A stretch of 64,000 nucleotides of DNA from Candidatus Dojkabacteria bacterium (GTDB taxonomy: Bacteria; Patescibacteriota; Dojkabacteria; B142; OLB20), in NCBI GenBank assembly GCA_035444565.1, contig DAOMOX010000001.1, forward strand, positions 258,335 to 322,334, given 5' to 3'. Under the pieces are notes generated by a model. It ran no database searches, was not told the origin of the DNA, and was given only the letters and a program-made list of their open reading frames with translations. The position numbers and the translations under genes are program-made. Below, piece after piece: positions 3,043 to 54,307 of this stretch (positions within the stretch are counted from its first letter, which is position 1; every line of letters begins with the position of its first letter).

Positions 3043-3462
3043 GTAATCCCACCCCCGAAGTCATTCCGCGGTTTAACCGCGGAATCTCGTTCTTCCTATG
3101 GGTACGCTAGAGAAAGTATACGAGACTCCGTGCTTAAAGCACGGAGTGACGGCGAGTATGGCATTCCTAGGAAAATCCACCCCGAAGTCTTCCCGTGGTT
3201 TAACCACGGGAACCCGTTTTACCGATAAGCACGGAATTTCGTTCTTCCTATAAGTGCGCTTGAAAGATTATACGAGACTCCGCGATTAAATCGCGGAGTG
3301 ACGGCGAGTGGGGTATTCCAAGGAAATCCGACCTAGTGGTCGTTCCGCGGCTTGACTGCGGAACCTCGTTCTTCCTTTAGGTGCGCTTGAGAAAGTATAC
3401 GGGACTCCGTGGTCCCTCCCTTTCGGCAGGGCAAGCAAGCCACGGAGAGACTTCAGACAACT
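3043..3462 (+). repeat. Array 1 of a GC-rich composite palindromic intergenic repeat: about 3 tandem ~128-bp units, each with palindrome A (ATTCCGCGGTTTAACCGCGGAAT-type) and palindrome B (ACTCCGTGCTTAAAGCACGGAGT-type) joined by conserved linkers
   Basis: Read directly. Perfect 23-nt palindromes at 3064-3086 and 3125-3147. Variants at 3191-3211, 3277-3299 and 3341-3363. The last B copy at 3403-3447 carries a nested insert 'tccctccctttcggcagggcaagcaag'. The linkers 'tcgttcttcctat(a/g)ggtgcgcttgagaaagtatacgagactc' and 'gacggcgagtggggtattcc(t/a)aggaaatcc' recur. The array is GC-rich against the AT-rich flanks. Confidence 0.85.
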
Positions 3463-3671
3463 TAACCCCATACTTATCCACAATCGATACAAAAGTTTTA
3501 GCCCTATAGTTATCCACATTTGTTAACTTATCGTATCTTTTTCGTATCTCCCTTATTTGACTTATGCTGTGAAACAATTAAAGTGTATATCGAAAATTTA
3601 CCAAATATCGCCCTACTCTCGTTACAAAAATTCCAAAACTATGGTTTAATACAGGTATAGCTTTTTTCACT

Positions 3672-4754
3672 ATGAAAATAGGAATAGATTTATCCCCCGT
3701 AGAGAAAGATCCAGCCGGTATAGGCCAATATTCACTTAGCCTGTTCACTGAATTATGCAAGATTGATAAAAAGAACACATATATTGTTTACACCACTGCC
3801 CCATTTCTGTTCGCAAATACAAAAAACAAAGTAATCAAAGTAAATAAAAAACTACCTGCTTATGGAAGTCGATGGATGAAATCCGTTGCAGAAGATGCGA
3901 AAAAGGAAGAATTGGATTTGTTCATCTCCCCTTCTAATCATCTTTTCACAAAGCTATTTCCCAAAACTATCCAGTATGTCCACGATTTGGCACCTATAAA
4001 ATATCCGAAATTCTTCGGAAGGAGAGCCTCACTCAAATACAAAGCCACTCTTAAGCTTGCTACTTCAAAGGCTTTGCAGATTCTAACCATAAGCCAGTCA
4101 GTTAAAGATGAAATCGTTAATGCGTATCCGAAAACTAAGGGAAAGATTAACTACATTTATCCTGGTTTGAATAAATGGATTGAACTTGAGAACAAAGATC
4201 CTAATGCAATTATGGATAAATATGCCATTGATTATGACTACATTCTTACCTTGAGCACACTTGAACCTCGAAAGAACCATATTAATATGATTAAAGCATT
4301 CCATTTATTCAAAAAATCCACTAACTCACCACTGAAATTCGCAATTATTGGCAAGAAGGGTTGGTTCTTTGATGAGATTTTCAAAATCGTTGCAGACCTC
4401 AACCTAGAGACCGAGGTTAAGTTCCTAGGCTATGTACCTAATCAAGAACTCAACCCAATTATAAAGAAAGCAAAAGCATTTATGTTCATGAGCTTTTATG
4501 AAGGATTCGGTATTCCTCCCATCGAGGCATTAAGTCTAAATGTGAAAACACTTGTTTCCGATATCCCAATCTTCCATGAAGCTTTTCAGGACAAAGTCGT
4601 GTATACAGATCCCTATTCACCTGATAAAATAGCCCTTGCAATACAAAAGATCCTGGAACGAAATCACCAAAATACAGAGAAGTTCGTAGAGGATCGATAT
4701 AGCTGGGAAAAGTCAGCGCACAAACTATTATCGATTATTAATGAGTATAGATAA
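3672..4754 (+). CDS. Glycosyltransferase, GT4 family (GT-B fold)
   Basis: 360 aa. C-terminal 'FMFMSFYEGFGIPPIEALS' is the EX7E motif region typical of GT4 retaining glycosyltransferases. Confidence 0.75.
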   Translation: MKIGIDLSPVEKDPAGIGQYSLSLFTELCKIDKKNTYIVYTTAPFLFANTKNKVIKVNKKLPAYGSRWMKSVAEDAKKEELDLFISPSNHLFTKLFPKTIQYVHDLAPIKYPKFFGRRASLKYKATLKLATSKALQILTISQSVKDEIVNAYPKTKGKINYIYPGLNKWIELENKDPNAIMDKYAIDYDYILTLSTLEPRKNHINMIKAFHLFKKSTNSPLKFAIIGKKGWFFDEIFKIVADLNLETEVKFLGYVPNQELNPIIKKAKAFMFMSFYEGFGIPPIEALSLNVKTLVSDIPIFHEAFQDKVVYTDPYSPDKIALAIQKILERNHQNTEKFVEDRYSWEKSAHKLLSIINEYR

Positions 4755-5292
4755 AAAAATATTAAAACAGTTTACCAAAGACGCAATTCGGAACCCCCTC
4801 TCTGTTTTTAAATACAGCTTTTTTAGATATATATTAATCGGAGTTTTAACGGTATTTGTGGGATTTGGAATTTTTAATTTCATTTCACTTACATCTGATA
4901 TTCACGGAGGAGCTGCAAACTTCATAGCAACCTTAATTTCATTAATATTTAATTTTTCCATGTCATACGCCTGGACTTTCAAGGTTCAGGGTAAACAAAA
5001 GATTAGAAGTCTTACAAGATACTCTATTCTTGCAGCCTTTAATCTGAGTTTCGAGACATTTTCCATGTATGGTTTCATAGAGTTACTTGAGTCTAGATTA
5101 ATAGACTTTTTGTTAAAGAGTCCAAATGTTGTGAAATTTGCCGACTTCATATTGGTCGAAATGAGCTTCTACGAAGGAACCCAGGAAGGACTTATGCAGG
5201 CAATATTGCGAAACTTACTTAAAGTGATTGCGTTATTAATGATCATTTCTTGGAATTTTGTACTCTATAAGAGATGGGTTTTTAAGAGATAA
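4741..5292 (+). CDS. GtrA-family membrane protein (polysaccharide-synthesis flippase-associated small membrane protein)
   Basis: 183 aa with 4 predicted hydrophobic helices. C-terminus 'WNFVLYKRWVFK' resembles the GtrA family signature. Overlaps the upstream GT4 gene by 14 bp. Confidence 0.5.
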   Translation: MSIDKKILKQFTKDAIRNPLSVFKYSFFRYILIGVLTVFVGFGIFNFISLTSDIHGGAANFIATLISLIFNFSMSYAWTFKVQGKQKIRSLTRYSILAAFNLSFETFSMYGFIELLESRLIDFLLKSPNVVKFADFILVEMSFYEGTQEGLMQAILRNLLKVIALLMIISWNFVLYKRWVFKR

Positions 5293-5294
5293 CG

Positions 5295-5430
5295 ATACAT
5301 CTCGTAGTCATTCCGTGCTTTAAGCACGGAATCCCGATTTTCCTATAGGTGCGTTTGAGTGGGCTTACGAGACTCCGCGGTCCCTCCCTTCCGGCAGGGC
5401 AGGTAATCGCGGAGTGACAGATGGGGCCAA
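5295..5430 (+). repeat. Array 2 of the same composite palindromic repeat (one unit; the B palindrome carries the nested insert)
   Basis: Palindrome A variant attccgtgctttaagcacggaat at 5310-5332. Then the linker 'cccgattttcctataggtgcgtttgagtgggcttacgagactc'. The B palindrome is interrupted: actccgcgg-[tccctcccttccggcagggcaggtaa]-tcgcggagt at 5372-5415. Confidence 0.8.
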
Positions 5431-5432
5431 AG

Positions 5433-7643
5433 CTAAACGTACATTCCCAAAACTTCCCTACTCTGCTTCTCCCACGAATTCTCTTCTACATACCTACGGA
5501 CTTTGGAAAGTTCACTCTGATACAAATTATTATCTTCAAAGAGTCTTTTCACGCCATCAACGATGGTTTGTGGTTTGTTGTCGCCTATACGGTAGCCGAC
5601 ATCACCAAGATCACTAAAAATCGCGGAATTTGAAATAACAACTGGTCGTTGAGAAGCAAAAGAATATCGTACTGCCCCACTCGCCCCTTCTTGTAAATCG
5701 GAATATGGAAGTACTATCACATCTGCAATGTGTAACAATTTGATAATCTCTTGTTTTTCAATAAAATCCGAAACAAAGATGACATTATCCTCTAGATTAT
5801 TTTCTTTAACCATCTCTTTCATCTGGTGAAAAACTGCTGAAGATGTTGAATTATCAGTATTTACAGCGTTGACACTCAACAACAATATTTGTGGAAAATC
5901 ATTTTTTAGAATTTTAAGTGCATCAATTGTTTCTAACAATCCTTTGTGTTCGTGAATTAAACCATGGGAGGCAATTATAGGAGTGTTTTTTAATTCCAAT
6001 TTTTCTCTGAGCTTAAGTTTGTTTTCATCAGTGAAAACTCTTACTCCATGTGTAAAGATTTCTGTATTATTCATACCACCCTGCTTTAGTTTCTCAAAGT
6101 CTTTTTGCGAATGGACAATTATTTTATCTACACGAGACACCTCTTCAGCATATTTCTTGAGATTAATTTCTGGAATAGAATGAATTGTCAAAAACACTTT
6201 TTTCTCTCTATTTTTTAATTCTTTAACAAGATTTGATAATGATTCGAGAGAATAAAATGGCCCATTGTATTGAATATGAACTATTTCAGGGCCAAACTTA
6301 TCAATTTCTGACAAAGTGGAGGTAAAGTCTTTTTCCGAATATTCCCATGTTCTAACGATTTTTTCATCGTCCTTGAATACAATTTCAGCGTCTGAGTTAG
6401 CGAAGTATCGAACATCTTCAAAAGCTCCTTCGATCAAAGGGTATAAATCCCGACTGTATTCAGCAATTCCGCATTTAGAGTTGTACGTCGTTATTACAGC
6501 TAATTTCTGCTCTTTTAATGGTTTAATTTTCTTCAAATATTCTATGAATTCTAGTACTTTCTTAGAAGTCCACTCCCAAGTTAGAGTCTTGGCTGTGTTA
6601 TATGCTTTCTCGACTTTTGAATTAACTTCCAACTCACCACGATTCTCGAAAAGATAACGCATTGTTTTCTTAAGTTGCTCAATGTCTGGTTCTGCCCAGA
6701 AGGAATTGTGCAAATCTAATTGAGACTCGGCTTTAACCAATTCGTAATCAATTAACCACGTATTTTCTTCGGAAACGAAATCCATCTGTCCACTATACGC
6801 AGTTGTAACGACAGGAAGCTGCTTTAACATTGCTTCAGCGACAGGCAATCCAAATCCTTCCGCCCTACTTGGAATAATTACAGCATCAACTTGTTCGTAC
6901 AGAGAAGCAATCTGGCCCTCAGTTAAATTCAAATCATAGATAACGTCGATTTCAGGAGAATTGCTTTTATCCAAGTCTTTTAATAACTCGGGGATAATGT
7001 TTGATTCGTTTCGGTAAGTTTTAATCACAAGTGCAACATCTTCAGAAACATCAAACTCTTCTGTGAAAGCTTTGATTAATACATCCACTCCTTTTCGAGG
7101 TAAACCAGAACTTATATGGAGAAACTTATAGCTTTTTTTAGTTTTCAATTTATATTCTTCGGACTTTAATAAGTTTTGATTTATTCCTTCGCTGACATTC
7201 ACAATCGGAATTGTCAAACCAGAGTTTCGCATGACTTGTAAGACATGTTCGCTGGTGACCATCAATCCATGTAACTCTCGATTAAATTCTTCAATGATTT
7301 TATGTGGAAAAACGGATTCCTCCCAAGCCAGATAGCCGATTTTTATGTCCGCATCAACTTTATCCAAGCCGAAACTGTGAGGGAATGTTTTGGGGAAAGT
7401 ATTGATAATCGCAACTGCACTATGCTCTTTATCTTCAGCATACAAATCCTTGAGTAATGGATATCTTAAAAGATCATCTTTTGTAGGAAGACGATCAGCA
7501 AGATTGTGGTCACCCCAGAGCTTTATATCGTATTTATCTGTGAGAGATACCAGACTTGTCGCTAGTTCTCGGTTCACTTTCGCCAATGAATACTCAGTAG
7601 CAAAAGGTCCGATGATTCGAATTTCAGGCTTATTTTGACTCAT
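5433..7643 (-). CDS. Two-domain glycosyltransferase (tandem GT4/GT-B modules)
   Basis: 736 aa. The first half has 'SRAEGFGLPVAEAM' (EX7E-like). The second half begins 'KLAVITTYNSKCGIAEYSRDL' and ends 'LQEGASGAVRYSFASQRPVVISN', another GT4-like C-terminus. Confidence 0.6.
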   Translation of the reverse strand: MSQNKPEIRIIGPFATEYSLAKVNRELATSLVSLTDKYDIKLWGDHNLADRLPTKDDLLRYPLLKDLYAEDKEHSAVAIINTFPKTFPHSFGLDKVDADIKIGYLAWEESVFPHKIIEEFNRELHGLMVTSEHVLQVMRNSGLTIPIVNVSEGINQNLLKSEEYKLKTKKSYKFLHISSGLPRKGVDVLIKAFTEEFDVSEDVALVIKTYRNESNIIPELLKDLDKSNSPEIDVIYDLNLTEGQIASLYEQVDAVIIPSRAEGFGLPVAEAMLKQLPVVTTAYSGQMDFVSEENTWLIDYELVKAESQLDLHNSFWAEPDIEQLKKTMRYLFENRGELEVNSKVEKAYNTAKTLTWEWTSKKVLEFIEYLKKIKPLKEQKLAVITTYNSKCGIAEYSRDLYPLIEGAFEDVRYFANSDAEIVFKDDEKIVRTWEYSEKDFTSTLSEIDKFGPEIVHIQYNGPFYSLESLSNLVKELKNREKKVFLTIHSIPEINLKKYAEEVSRVDKIIVHSQKDFEKLKQGGMNNTEIFTHGVRVFTDENKLKLREKLELKNTPIIASHGLIHEHKGLLETIDALKILKNDFPQILLLSVNAVNTDNSTSSAVFHQMKEMVKENNLEDNVIFVSDFIEKQEIIKLLHIADVIVLPYSDLQEGASGAVRYSFASQRPVVISNSAIFSDLGDVGYRIGDNKPQTIVDGVKRLFEDNNLYQSELSKVRRYVEENSWEKQSREVLGMYV

Positions 7644-8031
7644 CTTTATTTTTTCCTTCTAATTTATCGAGTCTTTCCTTTAAATCGCGATTTTCATTAT
7701 ATAAATGCATTAATAATGTGTATGAATTGTCATTGAATTTCTGTTGCCTCATAACACTCTTCTCGACTACGTTTCTCGCGACATTACCAATTTTTCCAAG
7801 TGTAAGATTTTTCAATTTGCCAATTATACCTGATTTCTCAAATAGAAAAGGCTCGTATATAAATCTCCCAGCATCGCGGAACTTATCCAATGCAGGGAGA
7901 AGATAAGTTTCTACTTCATTCTCAAGTTCAACCTTGTCTTGAGTTGATAAACCCTCTTTTTTTAGGACTTGCCTTACCCTATCGAGCAACTGCTCTCCTC
8001 TTACGACTGACTCTTGTTTCGAATTAGACAT
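7630..8031 (-). CDS. Hypothetical protein (charged, predicted coiled-coil)
   Basis: 133-aa ORF whose stop overlaps the start of the downstream tandem-GT gene (translational coupling). No recognisable motif. Confidence 0.4.
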   Translation of the reverse strand: MSNSKQESVVRGEQLLDRVRQVLKKEGLSTQDKVELENEVETYLLPALDKFRDAGRFIYEPFLFEKSGIIGKLKNLTLGKIGNVARNVVEKSVMRQQKFNDNSYTLLMHLYNENRDLKERLDKLEGKNKDESK

Positions 8032-8088
8032 GATTTACTATTACTAATGGTAGAATTCTACTATAATAAACTGCTAAATTAAACTTCC

Positions 8089-8898
8089 ATGGAGAAACAA
8101 CCTCTTGTAGCGATAATAATCGTGACCTGGAACAATCAGGATGAAATACGCGATTGTCTAGACTCCATAAAGAGATCCAACTACGAGCACCACAAAGTTG
8201 TTATTGTCGATAATGCTTCAAAAGACTCCACTACGGAAATAATAGATCAAGAATATTCCGAATTCGACTTAATCAAGAATGAAAAGAACTCACATTTCAC
8301 TGGCGGGAACAATATCGGCTTTAAGTATGCAATTGAGAAATATAATCCTGATTTTTTGATGATATTAAATCCTGATACGATTATTGATGCTGATGTGATT
8401 CATAAATTAGTCCAAATTTCTCAGAAAGACCATCTAGTTGGTGCAGTCGGACCAAAAATAAAGTTCAAAGGCGGCAAAAACGACGGTAAAATTAATTCAG
8501 CCAGCCTCTTCTATGATAATTTCCACTCTGCTTATGATCTCGGATTTGGGGAAGTCGACCAAGGTCAATTTAATGAGACGAAAGAAGTTTTTGCGGTGAC
8601 TGGTACTTGTATTTTATTTCGAACAGAAGTGATTAAAAAAACTGGTGGATTCTGGGAAATATTAAAAATGTACACAGACGAAGTTGAATTATTGATAAGG
8701 GTTCACAAACTAGGCTGGAAAGTTATCTATACTGGAGAAGTGACTGTCTGGCATAAATATATGAAGTCCACTAACCAAGAACATGAGACAAATTATGATA
8801 AACTGAAGATGAGAAATTGGTTACTCATCGCTTTAAGACACTACAGTATACGTGATAGACTCAGAATGATTCGAGATTATCTTAAATTTATTTTTTAA
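8089..8898 (+). CDS. Glycosyltransferase, GT2 family (rhamnosyltransferase-like)
   Basis: N-terminus 'VAIIIVTWNNQDEIRDCLDSIK...VVIVDNASKD' is a GT2 signature, with a DxD-like region later; 269 aa. Confidence 0.7.
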   Translation: MEKQPLVAIIIVTWNNQDEIRDCLDSIKRSNYEHHKVVIVDNASKDSTTEIIDQEYSEFDLIKNEKNSHFTGGNNIGFKYAIEKYNPDFLMILNPDTIIDADVIHKLVQISQKDHLVGAVGPKIKFKGGKNDGKINSASLFYDNFHSAYDLGFGEVDQGQFNETKEVFAVTGTCILFRTEVIKKTGGFWEILKMYTDEVELLIRVHKLGWKVIYTGEVTVWHKYMKSTNQEHETNYDKLKMRNWLLIALRHYSIRDRLRMIRDYLKFIF

Positions 8899-8907
8899 TA
8901 TTTTTCA

Positions 8908-9435
8908 ATGAAGCCATCACAAGTTACTGAAGAATGGTTGAAGAAACAAAAGTTCACCATCGAGAAAGGAATCACTATCGAAGGAGTATTTATGAAAGAA
9001 TTGAAAGCCCATGTTGATGATCGAGGAGATGTTATCGAACTTTGGAGTACTGCATGGCCAGAATATAAAGATGGGACTGTTATCAATACAACCCACAGCT
9101 ATCAAAGTGCTACTGACCCTGGAGTTGTGAAATGTTGGCATTTACACGAAATTCATACTGACCAGTTCACCGTAACTAGAGGTAAACTACAAGTTTCATT
9201 GGTGGATATTAGAGAAGGCTCCCCTACTTTCGGCAAAGCTAATTATATTATCATGGGGGAAGGAATTCCTAGGTTTTTGAAAATTCCAGCAGGAATTATG
9301 CATGGATGGAAAGCACTTGGAGACAAAGAGAGCATCGTGGTGAATTATCAATCCCACCCATATGACGCAAACGACGAATACAAATACACTTGGGACTGCG
9401 TTTTACCTGAGATTTGGGGACCACACAATGGCTAA
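8908..9435 (+). CDS. rfbC: dTDP-4-dehydrorhamnose 3,5-epimerase (RmlC cupin)
   Basis: 175 aa. 'GVFMKELKAHVDDRGDVIELWS' and 'HSYQS...KCWHLHE' match RmlC conserved His/Asp dyad regions. Confidence 0.8.
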   Translation: MKPSQVTEEWLKKQKFTIEKGITIEGVFMKELKAHVDDRGDVIELWSTAWPEYKDGTVINTTHSYQSATDPGVVKCWHLHEIHTDQFTVTRGKLQVSLVDIREGSPTFGKANYIIMGEGIPRFLKIPAGIMHGWKALGDKESIVVNYQSHPYDANDEYKYTWDCVLPEIWGPHNG

Positions 9436-9862
9436 TCAAAAAGTCGAAGTATTTAAGTTCAATAATATCGGCGACAGCAAAGGTCCAGTAATCAATCTTG
9501 ATTTCAGTGGGAAAGATATTGTCGAAATGCCTGTGTTCTATAGAGAATCGGAATCCAACCCCGAAGGTCACTTTCATAAAGGTACTGATGAATCATTCGA
9601 TCCACAATATGTTTATGTTTTGAAAGGTAAAATGGAATTTACCTGTATTTACCCCGAAGGTCGAACTGAAGTTCTACTTGTTGATGAATTACATGGAATC
9701 ATACTCCCAAAGTTGGTTTACCACAGATATAAAACATTAGAATACACGATATTTTGTGAGCCCAGACTTGAGAAGTACGACATTAACAATAACGACAAAA
9801 TCATCTGCTCAGCAGAGGATTATCCAAAGATAATTTCTGAAATATTAAAAAATGAAGAGTAA
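9428..9862 (+). CDS. Small cupin-like protein, possibly a WxcM/FdtA-like sugar ketoisomerase domain protein
   Basis: The ORF track starts at 9362, overlapping rfbC in another frame. The in-frame ATG at 9428 overlaps the rfbC stop (atggctaa), so 9428 is the likelier start. ~144 aa, 'GHFHKGTDESF...YVLKGKMEF' beta-rich cupin pattern. Function uncertain. Confidence 0.4.
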   Translation: MANQKVEVFKFNNIGDSKGPVINLDFSGKDIVEMPVFYRESESNPEGHFHKGTDESFDPQYVYVLKGKMEFTCIYPEGRTEVLLVDELHGIILPKLVYHRYKTLEYTIFCEPRLEKYDINNNDKIICSAEDYPKIISEILKNEE

Positions 9863-10751
9863 AGAAGTACTAGTAATTGGAAGCCATGGATTACTTGGCT
9901 CGACGTTAGTAAAACTTTTGAAAGAAAAAGGTTACAAGGTTTCCACTTCCGATATCAGCGATGAAGATGGAATTGATATCACAAAACCAGATTCTGTTGA
10001 AAAGCAGTTTAGTAAGGTCAAGCCAGATTTTGTTGTAAACTGTGCAGCATATACAAATGTAGAGGCCTGTGAAGATCCGGACCAATACAAAATTGCGTAT
10101 GCAGTTAATGCGGAAGGACCTAAAAATCTAGCTGTTGCATCTATCAACCATAATGTAAATCTAATACATATATCCACAGATTATGTTTTTGGTGACAATG
10201 ATAAAAATGGCTACGATGAGTCTTATAGCACATTTAATCCTTTGAACAAATATGGTGAAACCAAACGCGCTGGTGAATATAATTTAGAGAAATTAAGAGG
10301 TTGTATGGAAGGCTCGTATTATTACAACCAAGGTCCTTTGTTTTATGTGGTTAGAACTTCTGCCCTTTTCGGTGAAGGTGCAACCAACTTCATTGCAAAG
10401 ATTCTGCAATTTGCAAAAGAGAAAGAGTTTCTAGAGGTGGTCACGGATGAGGTTGTAAGTCCCACTTACGTGAAAGATTTATCAGAGGGAATTATTTATA
10501 TAATCGAGAACGAGCCAAAAGGTGGGATTTACCACTACTCTGGCGAAGGTTCTTGCAGTAGAAATGAATTTGCAAAAGAGATTCTCAGATTATCTGGTAT
10601 TGATACCCCAGTGAAACCGACTACTCTAGATAAGTTTAATAGGAAAGCAAAGATTCCAAATATTTCGATATTGAAGAATACGAAGTTCCCGGAGATTAGG
10701 AGTTGGAAGGAGATGTTGGCGGAGTTTATGAATTCAGAATTCAGAGTTTAG
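9852..10751 (+). CDS. rfbD: dTDP-4-dehydrorhamnose reductase
   Basis: 299 aa. 'VLVIGSHGLLGSTL' Rossmann, 'HISTDYVFGD' RmlD motif, YxxxK region 'YGETKRAGE'. Confidence 0.8.
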   Translation: MKSKEVLVIGSHGLLGSTLVKLLKEKGYKVSTSDISDEDGIDITKPDSVEKQFSKVKPDFVVNCAAYTNVEACEDPDQYKIAYAVNAEGPKNLAVASINHNVNLIHISTDYVFGDNDKNGYDESYSTFNPLNKYGETKRAGEYNLEKLRGCMEGSYYYNQGPLFYVVRTSALFGEGATNFIAKILQFAKEKEFLEVVTDEVVSPTYVKDLSEGIIYIIENEPKGGIYHYSGEGSCSRNEFAKEILRLSGIDTPVKPTTLDKFNRKAKIPNISILKNTKFPEIRSWKEMLAEFMNSEFRV

Positions 10752-10764
10752 CATCGAAACCAGG

Positions 10765-11200
10765 AAAACCCCTCACTGCTGTCTCTCCGCGGCCTGACCG
10801 CGGAGTCCCGTATACTTTCTCAATCGCACTTGTAGGGAAAACGGGTTCCCGTGGTCAAGCCACGGGAAGACCTTGAGGTTGGGATGATTGTTAATGAACG
10901 GAATGACCTCGGTGATCGTTCTCTTGGGAATACCCCACTCGGCGTCTCTCCGCGGTTACCTGCCCTGCCGAAAAGGAGGGATCGCATAGTCTTGCATATC
11001 TTCCCAGACGCACTTGTTAGTAAAACGGGATTCCGTGCTTAAAGCACGGAATGACCTTGAAAATGGATTTCAAAGGAATACCCCACTCGGCGTCTCTCCG
11101 CGGTTTAACCGCGGAGTCCCGTATACTCTCCCGAACGTACCAATATGAATAACGGGATTCCGCGGTCAAACCGCGGAATGACCTCGAGGTTGGGATTTCC
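10765..11200 (-). repeat. Array 3 of the composite palindromic repeat (about 3 units, inverted orientation relative to array 1; one B copy carries the nested insert)
   Basis: Reverse complement of the array-1 unit. Palindromes at ~10783-10805, ~10846-10868, ~11028-11050, ~11094-11116, ~11160-11182. The insert-bearing copy is 'ctctccgcggttacctgccctgccgaaaaggagggatcgcatagtc' at ~10950-10995. It fills the whole rfbD-rfbB intergenic space. Confidence 0.85.
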
Positions 11201-11276
11201 TGTTAGAACACAAAATGACACGAGCATGGTTTTCCCTGTATAATAATCCCAAATATATTTCATCTACTCTCGAATT

Positions 11277-12296
11277 ATGAACATACTAATCACTGGCGGG
11301 GCGGGTTTTATCGGCTCGAACTTTACGAAATACTGGGCTGATAAATATTCTGATGATAATATCGTTGTTTACGATAAGCTCACTTACGCAGGCAATAAAG
11401 AAAACCTAAAAGAGCTTTTCGACAATCCAAAGTTCAGCTTTGTTGAAGGTGATATTGTTGATGGAGAATTGTTTGAGAAAACTATTGTTGATCACGAGGT
11501 AAATACAATTGTACATTTCGCTGCAGAAACACATGTTGATCGAAGTATCGAGGGACCAGAAGCATTTGTACACACAAATATCATGGGAACTTTTAGAATT
11601 CTTGAGGTTTTGAGAAAACACCCCGAGATAAGATTACACCATATTTCTACTGATGAAGTTTTTGGAGAATTACCACTTGATGAGCCTGAGGCAAAATTTA
11701 GTGAAACTACACCTTACGATCCCCGAAGTCCCTACTCTGCCTCAAAAGCAGCTTCAGATCATCTCGTGAGAGCGTATGTGAATACTTATAAAATCAAAGC
11801 AACAATTTCAAATTGTTCAAACAACTACGGACCATATTGTTTCCCTGAAAAATTGATACCGCTTACAATCACTCGAGCTATAAACGATCAGGAAATTCCA
11901 GTTTATGGTGATGGCATGCAAGTCAGAGACTGGATTCATGTTGATGATCACTGCCTTGGGGTCGACCTTATTCTCGAAAAAGGCAAACTCGGAGAAACAT
12001 ATATTTTAGGTGGTCATGGGGAAAAGCCGAACATTTATATTGTGAAAGAGATTTTAAAACTACTTGAGAAACCAGAATCATTGATTGTCCATGTAGGAGA
12101 TCGTAAGGGTCATGACAAAAGATATGCCATGGACTTCACAAAAGCTAAAAACGAGCTGGGTTTTGAACCACAGAAACCATTAGAAAAACGATTAGAGGAA
12201 ACTGTGCAATGGTACGTAGATAACCAAGAATGGTGGGCACCACTTAAAGCAGAAGGTGATAGAATTGCCGAAAGCTATCTAAAAAATAGAATCTAA
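11277..12296 (+). CDS. rfbB: dTDP-glucose 4,6-dehydratase
   Basis: 339 aa. 'MNILITGGAGFIGSNF', 'HISTDEVFG', 'YSASKAASDHLV' (YxxxK), 'GDGMQVRDWIHVDDH'. Classic RmlB. Confidence 0.9.
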   Translation: MNILITGGAGFIGSNFTKYWADKYSDDNIVVYDKLTYAGNKENLKELFDNPKFSFVEGDIVDGELFEKTIVDHEVNTIVHFAAETHVDRSIEGPEAFVHTNIMGTFRILEVLRKHPEIRLHHISTDEVFGELPLDEPEAKFSETTPYDPRSPYSASKAASDHLVRAYVNTYKIKATISNCSNNYGPYCFPEKLIPLTITRAINDQEIPVYGDGMQVRDWIHVDDHCLGVDLILEKGKLGETYILGGHGEKPNIYIVKEILKLLEKPESLIVHVGDRKGHDKRYAMDFTKAKNELGFEPQKPLEKRLEETVQWYVDNQEWWAPLKAEGDRIAESYLKNRI

Positions 12297-12298
12297 AT

Positions 12299-12346
12299 CC
12301 ATCGATCTCGCTCCTCGACGTACTATGATGTAAGCGAGGATCGATG
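12299..12346. terminator. Candidate bidirectional hairpin terminator between convergent rfbB and the 12364-13161 gene
   Basis: Left arm ccatcgatctcgct (12299-12312) pairs with right arm agcgaggatcgatg (12333-12346), a 13/14-bp stem around a ~20-nt loop. It lies exactly between two converging stop codons. There is no strong U-run, so intrinsic-terminator function is uncertain. Confidence 0.35.
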
Positions 12347-12363
12347 AATCTTGATTTATCAAG

Positions 12364-13161
12364 CTAGCATTTCCCTATGCAAATCGTCCCATAATCAGAC
12401 GTTAAATTTAAAACACCAGCGGATTCATCTACTTTCAGCAAAGTTGTATTTCCAACCTCTCGTATCGACAAACCATTTTTAGCACCAGGTCCATCACCAC
12501 CCATTCGAATTGTAGCCTGGTCTCCACTCCACCCGATTCCAACACCTGCTAAATTGTTATTATTAGTGCTAATCGATGCACCTCCTCTAGTAGCAATGTC
12601 TCCATTTACATCCAACTTTGCAGTAGGATAGTAGTTGTCAATCCCGACCCTTGTCCCAGTAAAACTCAATGCATCATCTCCCACAAGTATCAATCTTGCA
12701 TCATAATCCGAACTTGTGTCATTGCTAAAATCAAGGTATGGAGTGCCTCTGTCACCTAGTTCGATAGAACCACCTTGATCAGGTCGGAGAATTCCACCTC
12801 CACCCCAACTAATATTTCCGCTAGGACCATTAATCATCATCCTTAGAACCTCTGAGCCTCTAGGACCCGAATAGAATTCTGTGTCAGGATAATCGGATGC
12901 ACCCCTTAATACGATTCTCGGTGTTTGTATGTTCTTAGAATCTGCAGTTGTGAACTCCATAGTATGTGGGCCACCTTTGAGTTGTTGAGTAATTCCAACA
13001 TCCATACCACCGAATCCCGCATTGAATAGGGAGAATTGATCTTGTGTTTGCCAATTTTTCGTAACTATAGCGTAGACCGTTTCATATTTGAAAGCCGTTA
13101 TCAGAAGGAGTCCAGAAAATAAAGCTATAGGAATTAGAACCAACATTCTCTTACGTCTCAT
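12364..13161 (-). CDS. Hypothetical secreted/membrane-anchored Gly/Asp/Ser-rich protein
   Basis: 265 aa. N-terminal 'MRRKRMLVLIPIALFSGLLLITAF' is a signal peptide or signal anchor. The remainder is glycine-rich and beta-rich (GGGGILRPDQGGSIELGDRG, NGDIATRGGASIS). No catalytic motif recognised. Flanked by repeat arrays 3 and 4. Confidence 0.5.
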   Translation of the reverse strand: MRRKRMLVLIPIALFSGLLLITAFKYETVYAIVTKNWQTQDQFSLFNAGFGGMDVGITQQLKGGPHTMEFTTADSKNIQTPRIVLRGASDYPDTEFYSGPRGSEVLRMMINGPSGNISWGGGGILRPDQGGSIELGDRGTPYLDFSNDTSSDYDARLILVGDDALSFTGTRVGIDNYYPTAKLDVNGDIATRGGASISTNNNNLAGVGIGWSGDQATIRMGGDGPGAKNGLSIREVGNTTLLKVDESAGVLNLTSDYGTICIGKC

Positions 13162-13278
13162 AATAGTTGTACTTTAATAAATAAAATCACTCTGCAGAGA
13201 TTTCGACTTGTTTGATTTTATTATTTTGTCTAAAGAAAATACTTTGTGTGTTGGTACAAGATATTCTGGAGAAATGAT

Positions 13279-13705
13279 GGCCGCGCTGTCTCTCCGCGGT
13301 TCAACCGCGGAGTCCCGTATGCCCTCTCGAACGCACCTATAGGAAAAACGGGATTCCGTGGTTAAACCACGGAATGACCGCGATGATGGCACCGTTAGGA
13401 ATACCCAACTCGGCGTCTCTCCGCGATTGCCTGCCCTGCCGAAAGAGAGGGGTCGCGGAGTCTCGTATACCCTCTTAATCGCACTTGTTGGGAAAACGAG
13501 ATTCCGCGGTTGAACCGCGGAATGACCTCGGAGTTAGTTTTCGATAGGAATACGCCCCCCGCTGTCTCTCCGCGGTTTAACCGCGGAGTCTCGTATACCC
13601 TCTTAATCGCACTTGATAGGAAAACGGGTTCCCGTGGTTAAACCACGGGAGGACCTCGAGGCTGGATTAGACCGGTTAAACCACGGAATGACTGTGAGCT
13701 GGATT
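13279..13705 (-). repeat. Array 4 of the composite palindromic repeat (about 3.5 units, inverted orientation; one B copy carries the nested insert)
   Basis: Palindromes tctccgcggttcaaccgcggagt, attccgtggttaaaccacggaat, attccgcggttgaaccgcggaat, tctccgcggtttaaccgcggagt and ttcccgtggttaaaccacggga, with the conserved linkers. Insert copy 'ctccgcgattgcctgccctgccgaaagagaggggtcgcggag' at ~13425-13466. A trailing partial 'ccggttaaaccacggaatgac' follows. Confidence 0.85.
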
Positions 13706-19223: not shown

Positions 19224-19373
19224 ATGAATGAAATGTTTTCTTATAACCCATTAGTTAATGGTCCTATCCTAAATAACCCACGACCAGAAGATCCTAGTGA
19301 CGAAGGACTGGGCGATCCCACAGACGAGGGATTAGGTGATCCTACCGACGAAGGTTTAGGAGATCCATATTAA
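19224..19373 (+). CDS. Possible small protein (49 aa) ending in three tandem DP(S/T)DEGLG octapeptide repeats
   Basis: ATG at 19224. Translation MNEMFSYNPLVNGPILNNPRPE-DPSDEGLG-DPTDEGLG-DPTDEGLG-DPY*. Not in the ORF track (<60 aa). The repeat codons vary at synonymous positions, which hints at selection on the peptide, but coding status is unproven. Confidence 0.25.
   Translation: MNEMFSYNPLVNGPILNNPRPEDPSDEGLGDPTDEGLGDPTDEGLGDPY
19290..19361 (+). repeat. 24-bp direct tandem repeat x3 (gatcc[t/c]a[g/c][t/c]gacga[a/g]gg[a/t][c/t]t[a/g]gg[c/t/a])
   Basis: Three consecutive 24-bp units at 19290-19313, 19314-19337 and 19338-19361, read directly. They lie inside the small ORF above. Confidence 0.7.
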
Positions 19374-50296: not shown

Positions 50297-53200
50297 ATGT
50301 TCAAACCCGTCAATCCAAAGCAAAATTTCCCTGAACTAGAGGGAGAAATTACAAAATTTTGGAAAGAAAATAAAATTTTTGAAAAATCTGTTGAAAATAG
50401 AAGTGCAAAGAACAGTTATATTTTCTATGACGGGCCTCCATTTATCACAGGTACTCCTCATTACGGTTCTCTACTTCCAAGTATAGCGAAAGACGTAATC
50501 CCTAGATATCAAACCATGCGAGGTAAAAGAGTCGAAAGAGTTTGGGGTTGGGATTGTCATGGATTACCAATTGAAAATAAAGTTGAGAAAAAACTAGGTA
50601 TTAAAAACAGACGTGAAATTGAAAAATATGGAATCGACAGGTTTATTGACGAATGTTACAACTACACCCGCGAAACTTCTGCAGAATGGAAATGGTACAT
50701 AGATAAAATCGGAAGATGGGTCGATATGGATAATGCATACAGGACCATGGACCAAGACTACATGGAAACTGTTATGTGGGTGTTCAAACAACTCCATGAA
50801 AAGGATTTGATTTACAAAGGAATGCGCACCTCACTTTATTGTACTCGCTGTGGAACACCTGTATCGAACTTTGAAATCGCTATGGATAACTCCTATGCAG
50901 ACATGGAAGATCCTGCGGTCACCATAAAGTTCCCAGTAACTACTCCCGGTGAATTCTCAGACAGCTCAATATTAGCTTGGACTACTACTCCATGGACACT
51001 CCCATCAAACAAAGCATTGGTGATTGATCCTGAGGAAACGTACATAAAAGCAAAAGTACAAAAACTCACTATTGAACTCGAACAAAGCTGGCAAGTGAAG
51101 GAATTACCAGAGAATCTAAAGAAATTAAAAAGGTCCGAAATCACACAGGCATACCTGGAAGACTATATTGATGAAAATGGGATAAAACCAAGAGACGCTC
51201 GTATTAGAAGGATTGATAGTAAATTTGAATTCACAACGAAATATTATGCTGGGAAATCTACCGAAACTGGACAATTAATTGAAAAAACCAAAGAAATCAC
51301 AAAAGAAGAATATATAGAGCTTATAAAACAAACAAAAGCAAAAGTAGTCAAAACCAGATACTACTACCCCCTTGAAGACGGATTAACAGCGGAGATTGAT
51401 GTGTATAGAAACCAACATGAAGGTGTAAATTTCGTAGAGGTGGAATTCAGTTCACTTAAGAAATTACAGAACTTCAAAAAGCCAGAATGGTTTGGAAAAG
51501 AAGTCACGGATTGTGACGCATGTTTCCCTAAATACATGGCAGATAAAAGCAGTGAACGAATCCTATCAGAAATAGATACTTACGTTCAGGCAGAACATAA
51601 TTACGAAGAAAATGTTCAAACTGATAACGTAATCCTCGCAAAAAAACGAGCAGAATACGCATTAGAGAACATTGATTATGAAATCGTAGAAGAATTTGAA
51701 GGAAAAAAATTATTAGGTTTGAAATACCGACCTCCTTTTGATTATTACAAAACCGAAAAAGGCGAACATCAAGTTTATGGTTTCCCTGGAATGGTTCACA
51801 TGGAAGAAGGAACAGGAATCGTTCATAGTGCCCCTGGATTTGGAGATATTGATACAGAGATGGGCCAGGAATATGGATTATCTATTGCGATGACCATTAA
51901 CGATGAAGGTAAATACTTACCACAAGTGAAAGACTTTGTAGGTTTGTATGTCAAAGATGCCGATCAACCAATTATTGAAAACCTCAAATCGAGAGACATA
52001 TTATTTAAAGTTGAGAAAATTGTTCACAGATACCCCTACTGCTGGCGTTGCGAAACTCCGCTAATTCACAAAGCCCAACCATCTTGGTTCATTGATATTG
52101 AAAAAATTCGCAAAGATTTATTGAAAAATAATGAAGACATCAACTGGGTACCAAAGCATCTAAAACATGGAAGATTTAAGAAGGGAATCGAAGTTGCACC
52201 TGACTGGGGAATTTCTAGAACTAGATATTGGGCAACACCAATGCCAGTCTGGCAAAGAGAAGAAGAAGGTCAAATCTTAGAAACAAAAGTTATCGGGAGT
52301 AGAGATGAACTTCGTGAACATGCAAACCAACCAATCACAAAAATCACATTCGTAAGACATGGTAATAAATCTCAAGATGATAGTCTAGACCCGGGAATGA
52401 CCGACTTGGGACATCAACAAGCAAAAGAACTAGCAAAAAAACTTTCGAAAGAGAAATTTGATGTAATAATCTCATCCCCAAAAAAAAGAACGCTTCAAAC
52501 AGCAGAATATATCAAAGAAGCTTTGGGTCAAGAATTCATAGAAGACAATTTATTTACTTCTCTCACAGATGGCGACGGTAGAGAGTTTTACAGACAAATA
52601 AAAAAACAACACAATGTCGAATATCTTCACGAACTTCCAGAAAGCATTTTGAGAGAGAAAATATTCCCTGTACTCACTCCATTAAAAGAAAACTTTGAGC
52701 AATTGTTGAAAAAATTCGAAGGTAAAAACATATTAATAATTTCGCATTCAGGGAAAATCAAATTCTTGGAACACATTATCGAAGGTTCAAACCTTAGAGC
52801 AGTTTTGACTTCAAAAATTAAAGAAGCCGGAACATACACGGCATATTTTCATGGAACCGATTTATTAGATTTACACAGACCCAAAATAGACCAAATTACG
52901 CTGAAGGGTAAAACTGGAGAATTGACGAGGGTGAAAGAGGTTCTAGACGTATGGATGGATAGTGCCTCTATGCCTTATGCTTCAAAGCACTACCCTTTCG
53001 AGAACAAACAAATGCTAGAAGAAAATTATCCAGCTGATTTTATTGTTGAATATATTGCACAAACTAGGGCATGGTTCTATGTGATGCATGTGATTTCAAC
53101 AGCATTATTGAATCAACCCTCGTTTAAAAATGTCATAACTACAGGGGTGATTTTTGGAACTGACGGTAGAAAAATGAGCAAAAGCTATGGAAATTATCCC

Positions 53201-54307
53201 GATCCTCGAGACGTACTTGAAAATTATGGTGCAGAAACATTAAGAATGTATTTGATGGGTTCCAAGATTATGCTTGGAGAGGATATGAATTTTGACGAGG
53301 ATGCACTTAAAGAGCAATACAAAACTTTCCTTCTACCACTTTGGAATAGCTATTCATTCTTTGTCACATACGCAAACATCCATAACTGGGAACCTAGTGG
53401 GAAGTTAGATTCAAAAGATCAACTTGATAAATGGATAGTCGCAAAACTTGATGAGACTAAGAGTCACTTCATCAAAGCCATGGATTCCTATAATATCCCC
53501 TCAGCAGTAAAATTACTTCCAGAGTTTATCGACATATTATCAAGATGGTATATCAGAAGATCACGCAGTAGGTTTGCGCAAGGATCGGAAGATGCTTTAA
53601 GTACGTTACACTACATCTTGGTTGAATTTACAAAGTTGTCCGCATCAGTAGTTCCATTTGTTTCAGAAGAGATATTCCAAAATCTACAAAATGACAATCA
53701 ATTTGAATCTGTGCATTTATCTGATCTTGAAAAACCAAAGAAATCAACTTTAGAAAACAATGCTTCGTTATTACAAAAGATGGAATTAGTTAGAGAGATT
53801 TCGACACTAGGTCAATCATTGCGGGTACAAAACAATCTCAAAGTTAGACAACCATTACAGAGTGTTGAGATTTATTTACAGGATAAAAATCTTGCAACTG
53901 AGGGAGATATGGGTTGGATGAATGAAATCGTAAAAGACGAACTCAATGTGAAGCAAGTTAAGTTCGTAAACAAAAAGCCTGAAAATGAACTTCTCGTCAG
54001 CTCGGGTCTAAATGACACCCTATTCGTCGGATTGGACTCTAAACTAACACCCGAATTGGAGGCAGAGGGAATTCTTCGTGAGCTTACAAGACAGATTCAG
54101 AGCCAAAGGAAAAAGTTAGGATTGAATATGGGTGACAAAATTGATTTAACAATTCAAACTGATGACAAGAAACTTGATGGAATAATCAAAAAGAATCAAA
54201 AAGGATTTGCTGAATCAGTAAATGCTACAAACATCCATTTCACTACAGCGAATCTGGAACACAAATTATCTATCAACGGTTCAGAACTAACCCTATCTCT
54301 TAGTTAG
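50297..54307 (+). CDS. ileS: Isoleucyl-tRNA synthetase (eukaryote/archaeal-like type) carrying two inserted domains: a CYTH/triphosphate-tunnel-like domain in the editing (CP1) region and a histidine-phosphatase (PGAM/SixA-like, RHG) domain before the KMSKS half
   Basis: 1336 aa. Class-I motifs 'PPFITGTPHYGS' (HIGH variant) and 'KMSKSYGN'. Editing-domain motifs 'TTTPWTLPSNKALVIDPEE' and 'EEGTGIVHSAPGFG'. Anticodon-binding region intact. The insert at aa ~255-447 (nt ~51059-51637) shows 'IELEQSWQVKELPENL...EITQAYLED..ARIRRI..TTKYY..KVVKTRYYYPLEDGLTAEIDVYRNQHEGVNFVEVEF'. The insert at aa ~678-855 (nt ~52328-52861) shows 'ITFVRHGNKSQDDSLDPGMTDLGHQQAKELA..FDVIISSPKKRTLQTAEYI..ILIISHSGKIKFL'. Confidence 0.9.
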   Translation: MFKPVNPKQNFPELEGEITKFWKENKIFEKSVENRSAKNSYIFYDGPPFITGTPHYGSLLPSIAKDVIPRYQTMRGKRVERVWGWDCHGLPIENKVEKKLGIKNRREIEKYGIDRFIDECYNYTRETSAEWKWYIDKIGRWVDMDNAYRTMDQDYMETVMWVFKQLHEKDLIYKGMRTSLYCTRCGTPVSNFEIAMDNSYADMEDPAVTIKFPVTTPGEFSDSSILAWTTTPWTLPSNKALVIDPEETYIKAKVQKLTIELEQSWQVKELPENLKKLKRSEITQAYLEDYIDENGIKPRDARIRRIDSKFEFTTKYYAGKSTETGQLIEKTKEITKEEYIELIKQTKAKVVKTRYYYPLEDGLTAEIDVYRNQHEGVNFVEVEFSSLKKLQNFKKPEWFGKEVTDCDACFPKYMADKSSERILSEIDTYVQAEHNYEENVQTDNVILAKKRAEYALENIDYEIVEEFEGKKLLGLKYRPPFDYYKTEKGEHQVYGFPGMVHMEEGTGIVHSAPGFGDIDTEMGQEYGLSIAMTINDEGKYLPQVKDFVGLYVKDADQPIIENLKSRDILFKVEKIVHRYPYCWRCETPLIHKAQPSWFIDIEKIRKDLLKNNEDINWVPKHLKHGRFKKGIEVAPDWGISRTRYWATPMPVWQREEEGQILETKVIGSRDELREHANQPITKITFVRHGNKSQDDSLDPGMTDLGHQQAKELAKKLSKEKFDVIISSPKKRTLQTAEYIKEALGQEFIEDNLFTSLTDGDGREFYRQIKKQHNVEYLHELPESILREKIFPVLTPLKENFEQLLKKFEGKNILIISHSGKIKFLEHIIEGSNLRAVLTSKIKEAGTYTAYFHGTDLLDLHRPKIDQITLKGKTGELTRVKEVLDVWMDSASMPYASKHYPFENKQMLEENYPADFIVEYIAQTRAWFYVMHVISTALLNQPSFKNVITTGVIFGTDGRKMSKSYGNYPDPRDVLENYGAETLRMYLMGSKIMLGEDMNFDEDALKEQYKTFLLPLWNSYSFFVTYANIHNWEPSGKLDSKDQLDKWIVAKLDETKSHFIKAMDSYNIPSAVKLLPEFIDILSRWYIRRSRSRFAQGSEDALSTLHYILVEFTKLSASVVPFVSEEIFQNLQNDNQFESVHLSDLEKPKKSTLENNASLLQKMELVREISTLGQSLRVQNNLKVRQPLQSVEIYLQDKNLATEGDMGWMNEIVKDELNVKQVKFVNKKPENELLVSSGLNDTLFVGLDSKLTPELEAEGILRELTRQIQSQRKKLGLNMGDKIDLTIQTDDKKLDGIIKKNQKGFAESVNATNIHFTTANLEHKLSINGSELTLSLS

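Follow-up and report, generated by a model that had tools for sequence, protein, structure and literature searches.

The first 14 kb of the stretch analysed here, a 64,000-nt window of a Candidatus Dojkabacteria contig (DAOMOX010000001.1, assembly GCA_035444565.1, positions 258,335 to 322,334), hold cell-surface polysaccharide genes separated at four places by arrays of GC-rich hairpin repeats, and these arrays and their relation to the recently described Ssn-related motifs (SRM) are the subject of this report. The organism recurs in wastewater and activated-sludge assemblies (Candidatus Dojkabacteria, WS6, Patescibacteria or candidate phyla radiation, CPR). According to Pfam, the flanking genes encode galE-like, glycosyltransferase family 4 (GT4), GtrA-like, double GT4, glycosyltransferase family 2 (GT2), rmlC-like, rmlD-like and rfbB-like proteins, a lineage-specific protein of 265 aa and a further GT2. 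The arrays occur in both orientations, in intergenic regions whose flanking genes run in the same direction, converge or diverge, and their G+C content is 52.6–56.0% against 36.1% for the window. A preliminary description, made from the letters alone, had placed GC-rich arrays at exactly these four sites, with arrays 1 and 2 opposite in orientation to arrays 3 and 4, and had confined the repeats to them; all of this was confirmed. A repeat finder gave arrays 1–2 as inverted relative to arrays 3–4, with 70–89% identity over 76–207 nt, while Tandem Repeats Finder reported none of the four, because their copies are only ~70–80% alike. The hairpin pattern TCCG[CT]G[GC]N5[GC]C[AG]CGGA has 11 matches in the window, every one within the arrays, and no match in any of 100 dinucleotide shuffles. 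Allowing two mismatches raises the array count to 17 (6 more) and adds a lone outside match at 57159, which is at chance level.

Turned to one orientation, all arrays are built on a basic unit of 91 nt: the trinucleotide GTC, hairpin A (ATTCCGYGG N5 CCRCGGAAT), a 39-nt linker L1 (CYCGT...ACGRG), hairpin B (ACTCCGYGG N5 CCRCGGAG) and (T/A)GAC. The reverse complement of A with its 5' flank is B with its 3' flank, the loops being TTTAA and TTAAA, and the unit is therefore a convergent pair, or doublet, of one oriented monomer, which has a GTC(A) foot, a 9-bp stem starting YTCCG, a short tolerant loop and a C right after the palindrome. Units are separated by a spacer of 36–40 nt made of a trailer (GCCGAGTGGGGTATT) and a leader (CC..GGAAATCC..CTCGAG), and the period of ~128 nt is the sum of the 91-nt doublet, the leader (~21 nt) and the trailer (~15 nt). 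Palindromes A (3062–3084) and B (3124–3146) read exactly as the preliminary description had quoted them; its count of about 12 units becomes 10 complete units plus three others, namely one recombined unit and two truncated monomers (Table 1). Loops are not as free to vary as had been supposed, TTTAA or TTAAA being present in 10 of 17. Four hairpins carry loop insertions of 22–23 nt, and the inserted mini-hairpin (CCTGCCCTGCC-GAAA-GGGAGGG on one strand) has a fixed orientation relative to the monomer and is also found in array 3 of two other strains of the species, L002 and L003.

Table 1. Positions of the repeat arrays, of selected units within them and of a neighbouring promoter-like match (window coordinates).
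Feature	Position	Strand	Context	Details
Array 1	3043..3462	+	Between galE-like stop (3021) and GT4 start (3672)	Three doublet units 3060-3150, 3187-3302, 3339-3451, with leader and trailer spacer
Archetypal 91-nt doublet	3060..3150	+	GTC-ATTCCGCGGTTTAACCGCGGAAT-L1 (39 nt)-ACTCCGTGCTTAAAGCACGGAGT-GAC	A monomer fits published SRM pattern at 3059-3089
Recombined unit	3187..3302	+	A hairpin with 17 nt of L1, followed by another partial A arm (CACGGAAT), full L1, B	25 nt longer than intact unit of strain L002
Loop insert, 22-nt mini-hairpin CCCTCCCTTTCGGCAGGGCAAG	3414..3435	+	In hairpin B loop of array 1 unit 3	Own stem-loop in fold; same hairpin of strain L002 lacks the insert
Array 2	5295..5430	+	Between convergent GtrA-like stop (5292) and double GT4 stop (5433)	Single unit 5307-5418; B hairpin with 22-nt loop insert 5382-5403; identical in 10 contigs
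Array 3	10765..11200	-	Between rmlD-like stop (10751) and rfbB-like start (11277)	Units 11092-11182, 10944-11055 (loop insert 10959-10980, B stem decayed), 10781-10871, and truncated monomer; SRM pattern matches 10780-10810, 11091-11121, 11153-11183
Truncated monomer of array 3	10872..10907	-		Foot, outer arm, loop and 2 nt, fused directly to next unit's leader
Array 4	13279..13705	-	Divergent region between 265-aa gene (start 13161) and GT2 (start 13750)	Units 13564-13654, 13415-13526 (loop insert 13430-13452), 13288-13378, and truncated monomer 13655-13692; SRM pattern matches 13287-13317, 13497-13527, 13563-13593
Sigma-70-like match (ATGACA-18-TATAAT)	11215..11244	+	Just downstream of array 3, upstream of rfbB	Best of the region; consensus scan only

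A MAFFT alignment was made of 18 distinct units, taken from the window, from two further strains and from a pair of related genomes. Under a model of two local hairpins, 94.5% of the stem cells are paired, cells with double changes number 31 against 11.4 ± 2.6 in shuffles, and the covariation score was reached in none of 500 shuffles, a control that does not amount to a probability since the aligned units are related by duplication. Compensatory changes in a DNA palindrome can be produced by intrastrand templated repair as well as by selection, and the covariation supports selection for, or maintenance of, the two local hairpins. A structured, hairpin-forming mosaic family had thus been recognised correctly at the outset, although the statement that both arms always change together went too far, exceptions being 3344–3362 (a G.T pair) and the broken B stem in 10944–11055. 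The GTC foot is invariant in all 16 units with letters there, the C that follows the palindrome shows at least 90% conservation in both A and B monomers, and the two are among the most conserved unpaired positions of the alignment. A single long hairpin joining A to B fared no better than chance (85.7% paired against 85.6% in shuffles; covariation score 0.106 against 0.107). Inverted doublets of repetitive extragenic palindromic (REP) sequences in Pseudomonas, termed REPINs, reportedly form one long hairpin; the window unit is likewise an inverted doublet of one hairpin motif, but its covariation is confined to the local hairpins and absent from the long A:B pairing. As single-stranded DNA (ssDNA), the unit is predicted to fold into a four-way structure with three hairpins closed by the GTC/GAC feet (z = -4.2 to -5.1). 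A tRNA-like cloverleaf was dropped as a reading of this fold, for which ARAGORN and Rfam gave no support and the symmetry of the unit accounts, and so was a hammerhead or other ribozyme (GUC with three helices), the core motifs being absent and Rfam giving no match. At the gathering threshold, Rfam had zero matches in the 64 kb, with only chance-level ones at E > 0.1, and ARAGORN found no tRNA or tmRNA.

A repeat family of this kind, together with its partner enzyme, was described in 2025 as SRM and Ssn, the latter being small ssDNA nucleases (Chenal et al. 2025, PMC11893778). The Neisseria Transformation Sequence (NTS), CGTCATTCCCGCGMAVGCGGGAATCYRG, includes the Neisseria dRS3 repeat, and SRM are the broader class; the ssn genes, flanked and accompanied by SRM, encode single-domain GIY-YIG proteins of ~94 aa (cd10448) (PMC11893778). 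SsnA binds the motif only as ssDNA and on one strand, does not bind RNA, and makes its cut a few nucleotides upstream; cutting depends critically on the 3 nt that precede the palindrome and binding on the C that follows it, whereas the identity of the loop is dispensable and loop extensions are tolerated (PMC11893778). In Neisseria meningitidis, the system reduces transformation by NTS-bearing DNA ~5-fold, and NTS clusters surround surface-protein genes (PMC11893778). The authors likened NTS-ssnA-NTS to an insertion sequence (IS) and compared it with the REP, bacterial interspersed mosaic element (BIME) and REP-associated tyrosine transposase (RAYT) system; Patescibacteria are not mentioned in their text (PMC11893778).

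The published degenerate search pattern, HGTCWYN(0-2)YYVSBRHN(0-5)WNVSBRGN(0-2)RNCYNB (PMC11893778), matches six hairpins of the window (eight with the first base relaxed), all within the arrays, against a mean of 0.08 and a maximum of 1 in first-order Markov simulations. Hairpins with the stem variants CCGTGG or CCGTGC escape the pattern yet align column for column with those that match. The hairpin with its GTC foot and trailing C is covered by the published SRM/NTS definition (PMC11893778), and the repeats are not the new, unnamed family that they had been taken for. Like the NTS recognised by SsnA, the window hairpins are oriented and have a GTCA foot, YTCC...GGAR stem ends and a trailing C; the arrays are likewise intergenic, clustered around surface-related genes and tolerant in the loop, and the reported tolerance of Ssn for loop extensions fits their loop inserts. 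They differ in host, the window belonging to the CPR/Patescibacteria, in stem core and loop length (CCGYGG with 5 nt, against CCCGCG with 4 nt in NTS) and in organisation, their monomers being paired into convergent doublets that repeat in tandem with two conserved linkers, L1 and L2. The dRS3 repeats and mosaic elements (NIMEs) of Neisseria consist of 50–150-bp units with short ATTCC...GGAAT inverted-repeat hairpin ends and are enriched near variable surface-component genes. The window arrays resemble them as arrays of hairpin-bounded repeat units, but have unrelated linker sequences and lie in another phylum, and the window hairpins (ATTCCGYGG-N5-CCRCGGAAT or TTCCCGTGG-N5-CCACGGGAA) do not follow the dRS3 consensus ATTCCC-N8-GGGAAT.

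The same locus was retrieved from related species, at 79–89% nucleotide identity, with the lineage-specific 265-aa neighbour as probe. At the array 3 site, L066 has a gene for a 94-aa protein with GIY-YIG as its sole domain (Pfam, residues 3–78, E = 6.2e-14), and homologues occupy one or both of the array 3 and array 4 sites in L069–L079, the proteins of the relatives being 86–94 aa long; in all, six types of locus from the related species have the gene at these sites. Each of these genes is flanked by inverted foot-hairpins (examples are L069, L074 and L066), the upstream one, TGTCAYTCCTGC-GAAG-GCAGGARTCC, lying ~70 nt before the ATG and the downstream one, GGACTCCTGC-CTWC-GCAGGAGTGACA, right after the stop, with extra tandem hairpins and half-copies accompanying them. 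The relatives have the SRM-ssn-SRM architecture known from Neisseria at the very sites that the window arrays occupy. This gene-bearing element has the geometry of the 91-nt doublet, the gene standing where the doublet has L1, and it shares an outer boundary sequence, GGTAAAATCCAGC, with window array 4. Homologues of the L066 protein number 821 at E <= 1e-5, many of them on contigs of ~1 kb and several as paralogues on one Dojkabacteria contig; the best 120 are mostly 92–110 aa long. Distant homologues have the same gene-between-hairpins architecture. One of them, P0112 in L082, is 59% identical and lies between dnaK and dnaJ with TGTCATTCCCGCGAAAGCGGGAATCCAG on both sides, a sequence that matches the Neisseria NTS consensus at 27 of 28 positions; its flanks are also the only ones to follow the dRS3 consensus literally. 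Through this homologue and its NTS-like flanks, the genes of the relatives have a putative, indirect link to SsnA of N. meningitidis.

Repeats of the window type (type I) form arrays at sites 2, 3 and 4 in L067 and single doublets at sites 1 and 3 in L068, while L063 (82% identical) has one decayed unit right after the galE stop and a sister-type doublet in the place of array 2. At this last site the window has no more than its one unit, whereas the relatives carry one or two small ORFs (95–109 aa, no Pfam match; L063 13511–13840, L066 17937–18602, L067 18127–18414, L068 17425–17718), and the presence or absence of a gene coincides with repeat occupancy. At the array 3 site of L071–L073 (2467–3592), a lineage 87–89% identical, a NUDIX gene and an ORF of 113–199 aa stand beside ssn, between rfbB and rmlD, which indicates that the hot-spot also gathers cargo genes.

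Strains of the same species, 96–97% identical in nucleotide sequence, differ in both units and loop inserts. The array 1 intergenic region is 650, 605 or 478 nt long, and array 1 varies by a whole unit (an indel of ~127 nt with no target duplication) and by a 25-nt scar. In the window strain, array 1 has the 22-nt loop insert and array 3 lacks it, and the reverse holds in L002 and L003; the units around the loop inserts differ between strains by many substitutions, against flanks that are 96–97% identical. All contigs of the species (at least 10) agree in the order and orientation of their genes, six related lineages are syntenic with them, and no inversion or cassette swap was seen.

A strict hairpin pattern, scanned once over 185,579 species-representative genomes, gave three sets of matches. 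A termite-gut Treponema metagenome-assembled genome (MAG) has the same doublet architecture with a short L1 on 24 contigs; the DTUPAT2 MAG (36–39% G+C), which we read as a second Patescibacteria genome, has related units with extended similarity to those of the window; and Kangiella and Thalassolituus have single monomers. Copies in Treponema, DTUPAT2, L067 and L068 are matched by the published SRM pattern as well, and so is the flank on either side of the L082 gene. A 120-homologue hidden Markov model (HMM), which recovers every known ssn copy in the relatives, detected no ssn-like ORF around the copies in Treponema, Kangiella and DTUPAT2. The Treponema copies are in gene contexts unrelated to that of the window, and so are those of DTUPAT2, whose settings are the interior of a glycogen-debranching-enzyme ORF, the gap that separates miaA from a pyruvate:ferredoxin oxidoreductase gene, and the neighbourhood of a zincin peptidase gene; the DTUPAT2 contexts indicate that the family is not intrinsically tied to glycan loci, so that of the locus specificity first proposed there remains the fact that the relatives keep the elements at the same sites. 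In the glycogen-debranching-enzyme ORF, which is 642 aa long, the copy (L021 2734–2752) is a monomer, CGATTCCGTGGTTAAACCACGGAATGACC, situated in the linker between GDE_N and GDE_C, and appears to be an in-frame intragenic copy reminiscent of the Rickettsia palindromic elements. A metagenome scan with the two-hairpin pattern returned the same locus from an activated-sludge assembly and 13 chance matches in GC-rich contigs, and no more. No match was found in viral contigs (pattern scan), in plasmids and phages (blastn), or between six-frame translations of the arrays and a protein database at E <= 1e-3; literature searches on the palindrome sequence, Leptospira REPs and Patescibacteria miniature inverted-repeat transposable elements (MITEs) found nothing relevant.

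Several further observations concern the structure of the copies. Half-copies, here called stutters, occur as 1–5 tandem repeats with a period of ~19–30 nt, often on the foot side of complete hairpins; each keeps the foot, outer arm and loop and breaks early in the inner arm (L025 1051–1276, L033 reverse complement ~3370–3445, L030 892–990, L044 reverse complement ~350–450, L019, L020 and L066 reverse complement 12480–12606). The two window cases (reverse complement 13692–13655 and 10907–10872) break exactly at the loop plus 2 nt, and the break in Treponema L025 looks alike by eye, with apparently about three half-copies on each outer side of the doublet. The leader junctions are 17–21 nt 5' of GTC in Dojkabacteria and, as we read them, a few nt 5' of GTCA in the Treponema stutters. 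Stutters look like the footprint of repeated cut-and-join or template switching at the hairpin; no description of them was found in Chenal et al. 2025 (PMC11893778). The Treponema copies L020 and L022 carry an unrelated structured insert of ~60 nt at the position of the loop inserts. At two Treponema contig ends (L029 4050–4168 and L030 ~1040–1117), hairpin B is broken at the loop plus 2 nt by the same AT-rich sequence (CTAAACTTGTCCCATAACTTAGATTAAG...), which looks like the end of an IS that targets the hairpin at a fixed position. A longer composite repeat in Treponema, with outer inverted repeats (CTGTCAACAAGTTAAG...) around one SRM hairpin and two other hairpins (L044 2070–2250, also L032, L039 and L013; at least 4 contigs), appears to be a different MITE that captured, or was built around, an SRM.

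Given the convergent geometry of the doublets and the ssn genes at the same sites in related species, we read the arrays as SRM clusters whose doublets most likely derive from an SRM-ssn-SRM element, either as non-autonomous, MITE-like descendants or as relics, and we hold this reading with good confidence. By analogy with the Neisseria and Wolbachia enzymes, each monomer would fold into a hairpin when the DNA becomes single-stranded during uptake, replication or repair, and a cognate Ssn would bind the folded monomer in a sequence- and strand-specific manner and cut a few nucleotides 5' of the foot. Since a doublet has its monomers on opposite strands, the cuts would be expected to bracket it, just as they would bracket the ssn gene in a complete element. 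The doublets probably accumulated, multiplied and traded patches in the intergenic regions of a surface-glycan locus, at four hot-spot sites. If a cognate Ssn is expressed in the genome, the arrays would mark the glycan blocks for ssDNA cutting and modulate recombination there; if it is not present, they would be decaying or recombining relics. The sequences show the identity of the motif, the doublet geometry, the covariation of the local hairpins, the ssn genes of relatives at the same sites and the turnover between strains, whereas cleavage, mobility and an effect on recombination are inferred. Other Patescibacteria are reportedly naturally competent, which makes a modulation of recombination by Ssn plausible but is no proof of it.

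Some results weigh against this interpretation. The 120-homologue HMM found no ssn-like ORF in the window and its two flanks (~80 kb in all, a difference from the NTS-SsnA system) or in the same-species strains, and none of the best 120 of the 821 homologues lies on the 620,866-bp contig of assembly GCA_035445885.1, the longest of the organism, or on its 516,094-bp contig; in these searches no cognate nuclease was found for type I. On either side of the Dojkabacteria ssn genes stand hairpins of a sister type (type II, CTCCTGC-GAAG-GCAGGAG) missed by the published SRM pattern, again a difference from NTS-SsnA. The persistence of the repeats at four sites across species 79–89% identical could equally reflect a locus-specific function unrelated to Ssn.

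The preliminary description had proposed three other roles for the repeats, the first being that of REP/BIME elements, spread and maintained by a RAYT (an IS200/IS605-like Y1 HUH transposase) encoded elsewhere in the genome. BIME-2 of Escherichia coli consists of palindromes that alternate in orientation and are set apart by conserved linkers of two kinds, a layout shared by the window repeats, which are intergenic and multi-copy. The likeness to the E. coli REP/BIME-RAYT system extends to a copy number that varies between strains and, on the present reading, to a small nuclease recognising ssDNA hairpins, and as an analogy of organisation the comparison is fair. However, the foot of the array hairpins, directly before the stem, is GTC(A/T/C/G) and not of the GTAG type of REPs, the motif falls under the SRM definition, and the genes between such hairpins in the relatives, at the array 3 and 4 sites, are of the Ssn-type GIY-YIG kind and not HUH/Y1. 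A tblastn search with E. coli RAYT (query sequence verified against PDB 4ER8) and the TnpA of IS200, IS608, ISDra2 and Sulfolobus found nothing below E = 0.1 in the 577 kb examined, ~250 kb of which lie around the Treponema copies, and a RAYT as the partner is highly improbable. A classical MITE with terminal inverted repeats (TIRs), moved by a DDE transposase, would account for a unit that is an imperfect palindrome with inverted ends of ~26 nt, but junctions read at the array 2 unit, the L063 unit at 11001–11090 and the unit 3 indel have no target-site duplication. Moreover, no transposase family recurs among 131 ORFs (at least 100 aa) that flank the Treponema, Kangiella and DTUPAT2 copies (Pfam, 25 largest of 129 families), and the A and B stems vary independently, each keeping its own pairing, which hairpins fit better than duplex TIRs; such an origin is exceedingly unlikely.

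The second proposal, a role at the RNA level as hairpins that stabilise or attenuate mRNA within the polysaccharide operons, taken here to include mRNA processing and weak bidirectional termination, draws on the stability of the predicted hairpins (z = -3 to -5), on a T-rich stretch (CCCGTTTTTCC) after hairpin A, with four A hairpins flagged by a terminator scan, and on the start of arrays 1–3 within ~25 nt of a stop codon. Against it, arrays occur in all intergenic configurations and may run either with or against the gene upstream, array 3 shows its non-T-rich side and array 4 lies in a divergent promoter region; single changes of the G.U and A.C type fall on both strands, so that no transcribed strand is favoured, Rfam has no match, and SsnA does not bind RNA (PMC11893778). 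We consider such a primary role improbable, although an RNA effect could arise as a by-product. The third, that the arrays are substrates of homologous recombination or gene conversion which shuffle or invert glycan blocks, giving diversity or phase variation (taken here as independent of Ssn), gains from the inverted arrangement of arrays 1–2 relative to arrays 3–4, at 70–80% identity over 100–200 nt, and the swaps of loop inserts and dense substitutions within units between strains are as expected from patch exchange between arrays. The constancy of gene order and orientation in the species and the six related lineages, with no inversion or cassette swap, and an identity between arrays that is low for efficient RecA recombination make it quite improbable. 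RNA-level effects and recombination between arrays may both be by-products; neither explains the orientation pattern or the identity of the motif.

Other features of the window were noted beside the arrays. The -35-like ATGACA of the sigma-70-like match upstream of rfbB seems to resemble the SRM foot (GGAATGACA), to judge from the letters. A 24-nt tandem repeat of 2.8 copies with 79% matches (GACGAAGGACTAGGCGATCCCACA), at 19299–19366 in the gap that separates the UDP-glucose dehydrogenase gene from the following GT2 gene, has no relation to the SRM arrays. The glycan locus is immediately preceded by an ATP-citrate-lyase-like pair (166–1977 and upstream, L001 5196–8306; ATP-grasp_2/Citrate_bind and Ligase_CoA/Citrate_synt), one gene of which is citrate/2-methylcitrate synthase in the NCBI annotation. 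At 50297–54307 (+), an isoleucyl-tRNA synthetase of 1336 aa has a His_Phos_1 domain inserted at residues 683–847 between the halves of its catalytic domain, an insertion conserved in its 90% cluster.

For annotation, the arrays account for GC-rich intergenic blocks and for likely assembly breaks, a related array (L036) being found at a contig end. The repeats of the window belong to a known kind but extend it to a new phylum, and they are set apart by their own stem variant and by their arrangement as arrays of doublets. The 2025 description was based mainly on RefSeq genomes of cultured bacteria and left open the spread and role of the repeats outside Neisseria; the present locus extends the SRM system to a Patescibacteria bacterium whose genome measures about 0.6 Mb or more and in which the repeats bracket cell-surface polysaccharide genes, a parallel to the NTS clusters at surface-protein genes of pathogenic Neisseria. 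Species 79–97% identical present a graded series at the same sites, from a single decayed unit through multi-unit arrays to the nuclease gene in place, which makes the proposed IS-like behaviour of SRM-ssn-SRM directly testable, and this series provides evidence on array formation that is circumstantial but unusually direct. It is conceivable, though we regard it as doubtful, that the doublets are active, MITE-like, non-autonomous copies of a hitherto unproven class of mobile element whose only gene is a 94-aa GIY-YIG single-strand nuclease. In that case, the exchange of ssn and arrays between species at the four sites, the unit-sized indels without target duplication between strains, and the half-hairpin stutters (in the two window cases, loop plus 2 nt fused to the next leader) would all be footprints of Ssn-dependent single-strand cut-and-join. 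They would then be the first comparative evidence on how arrays of the NTS/dRS3/NIME type are built, and the system would operate in reduced CPR genomes around surface-glycan genes.

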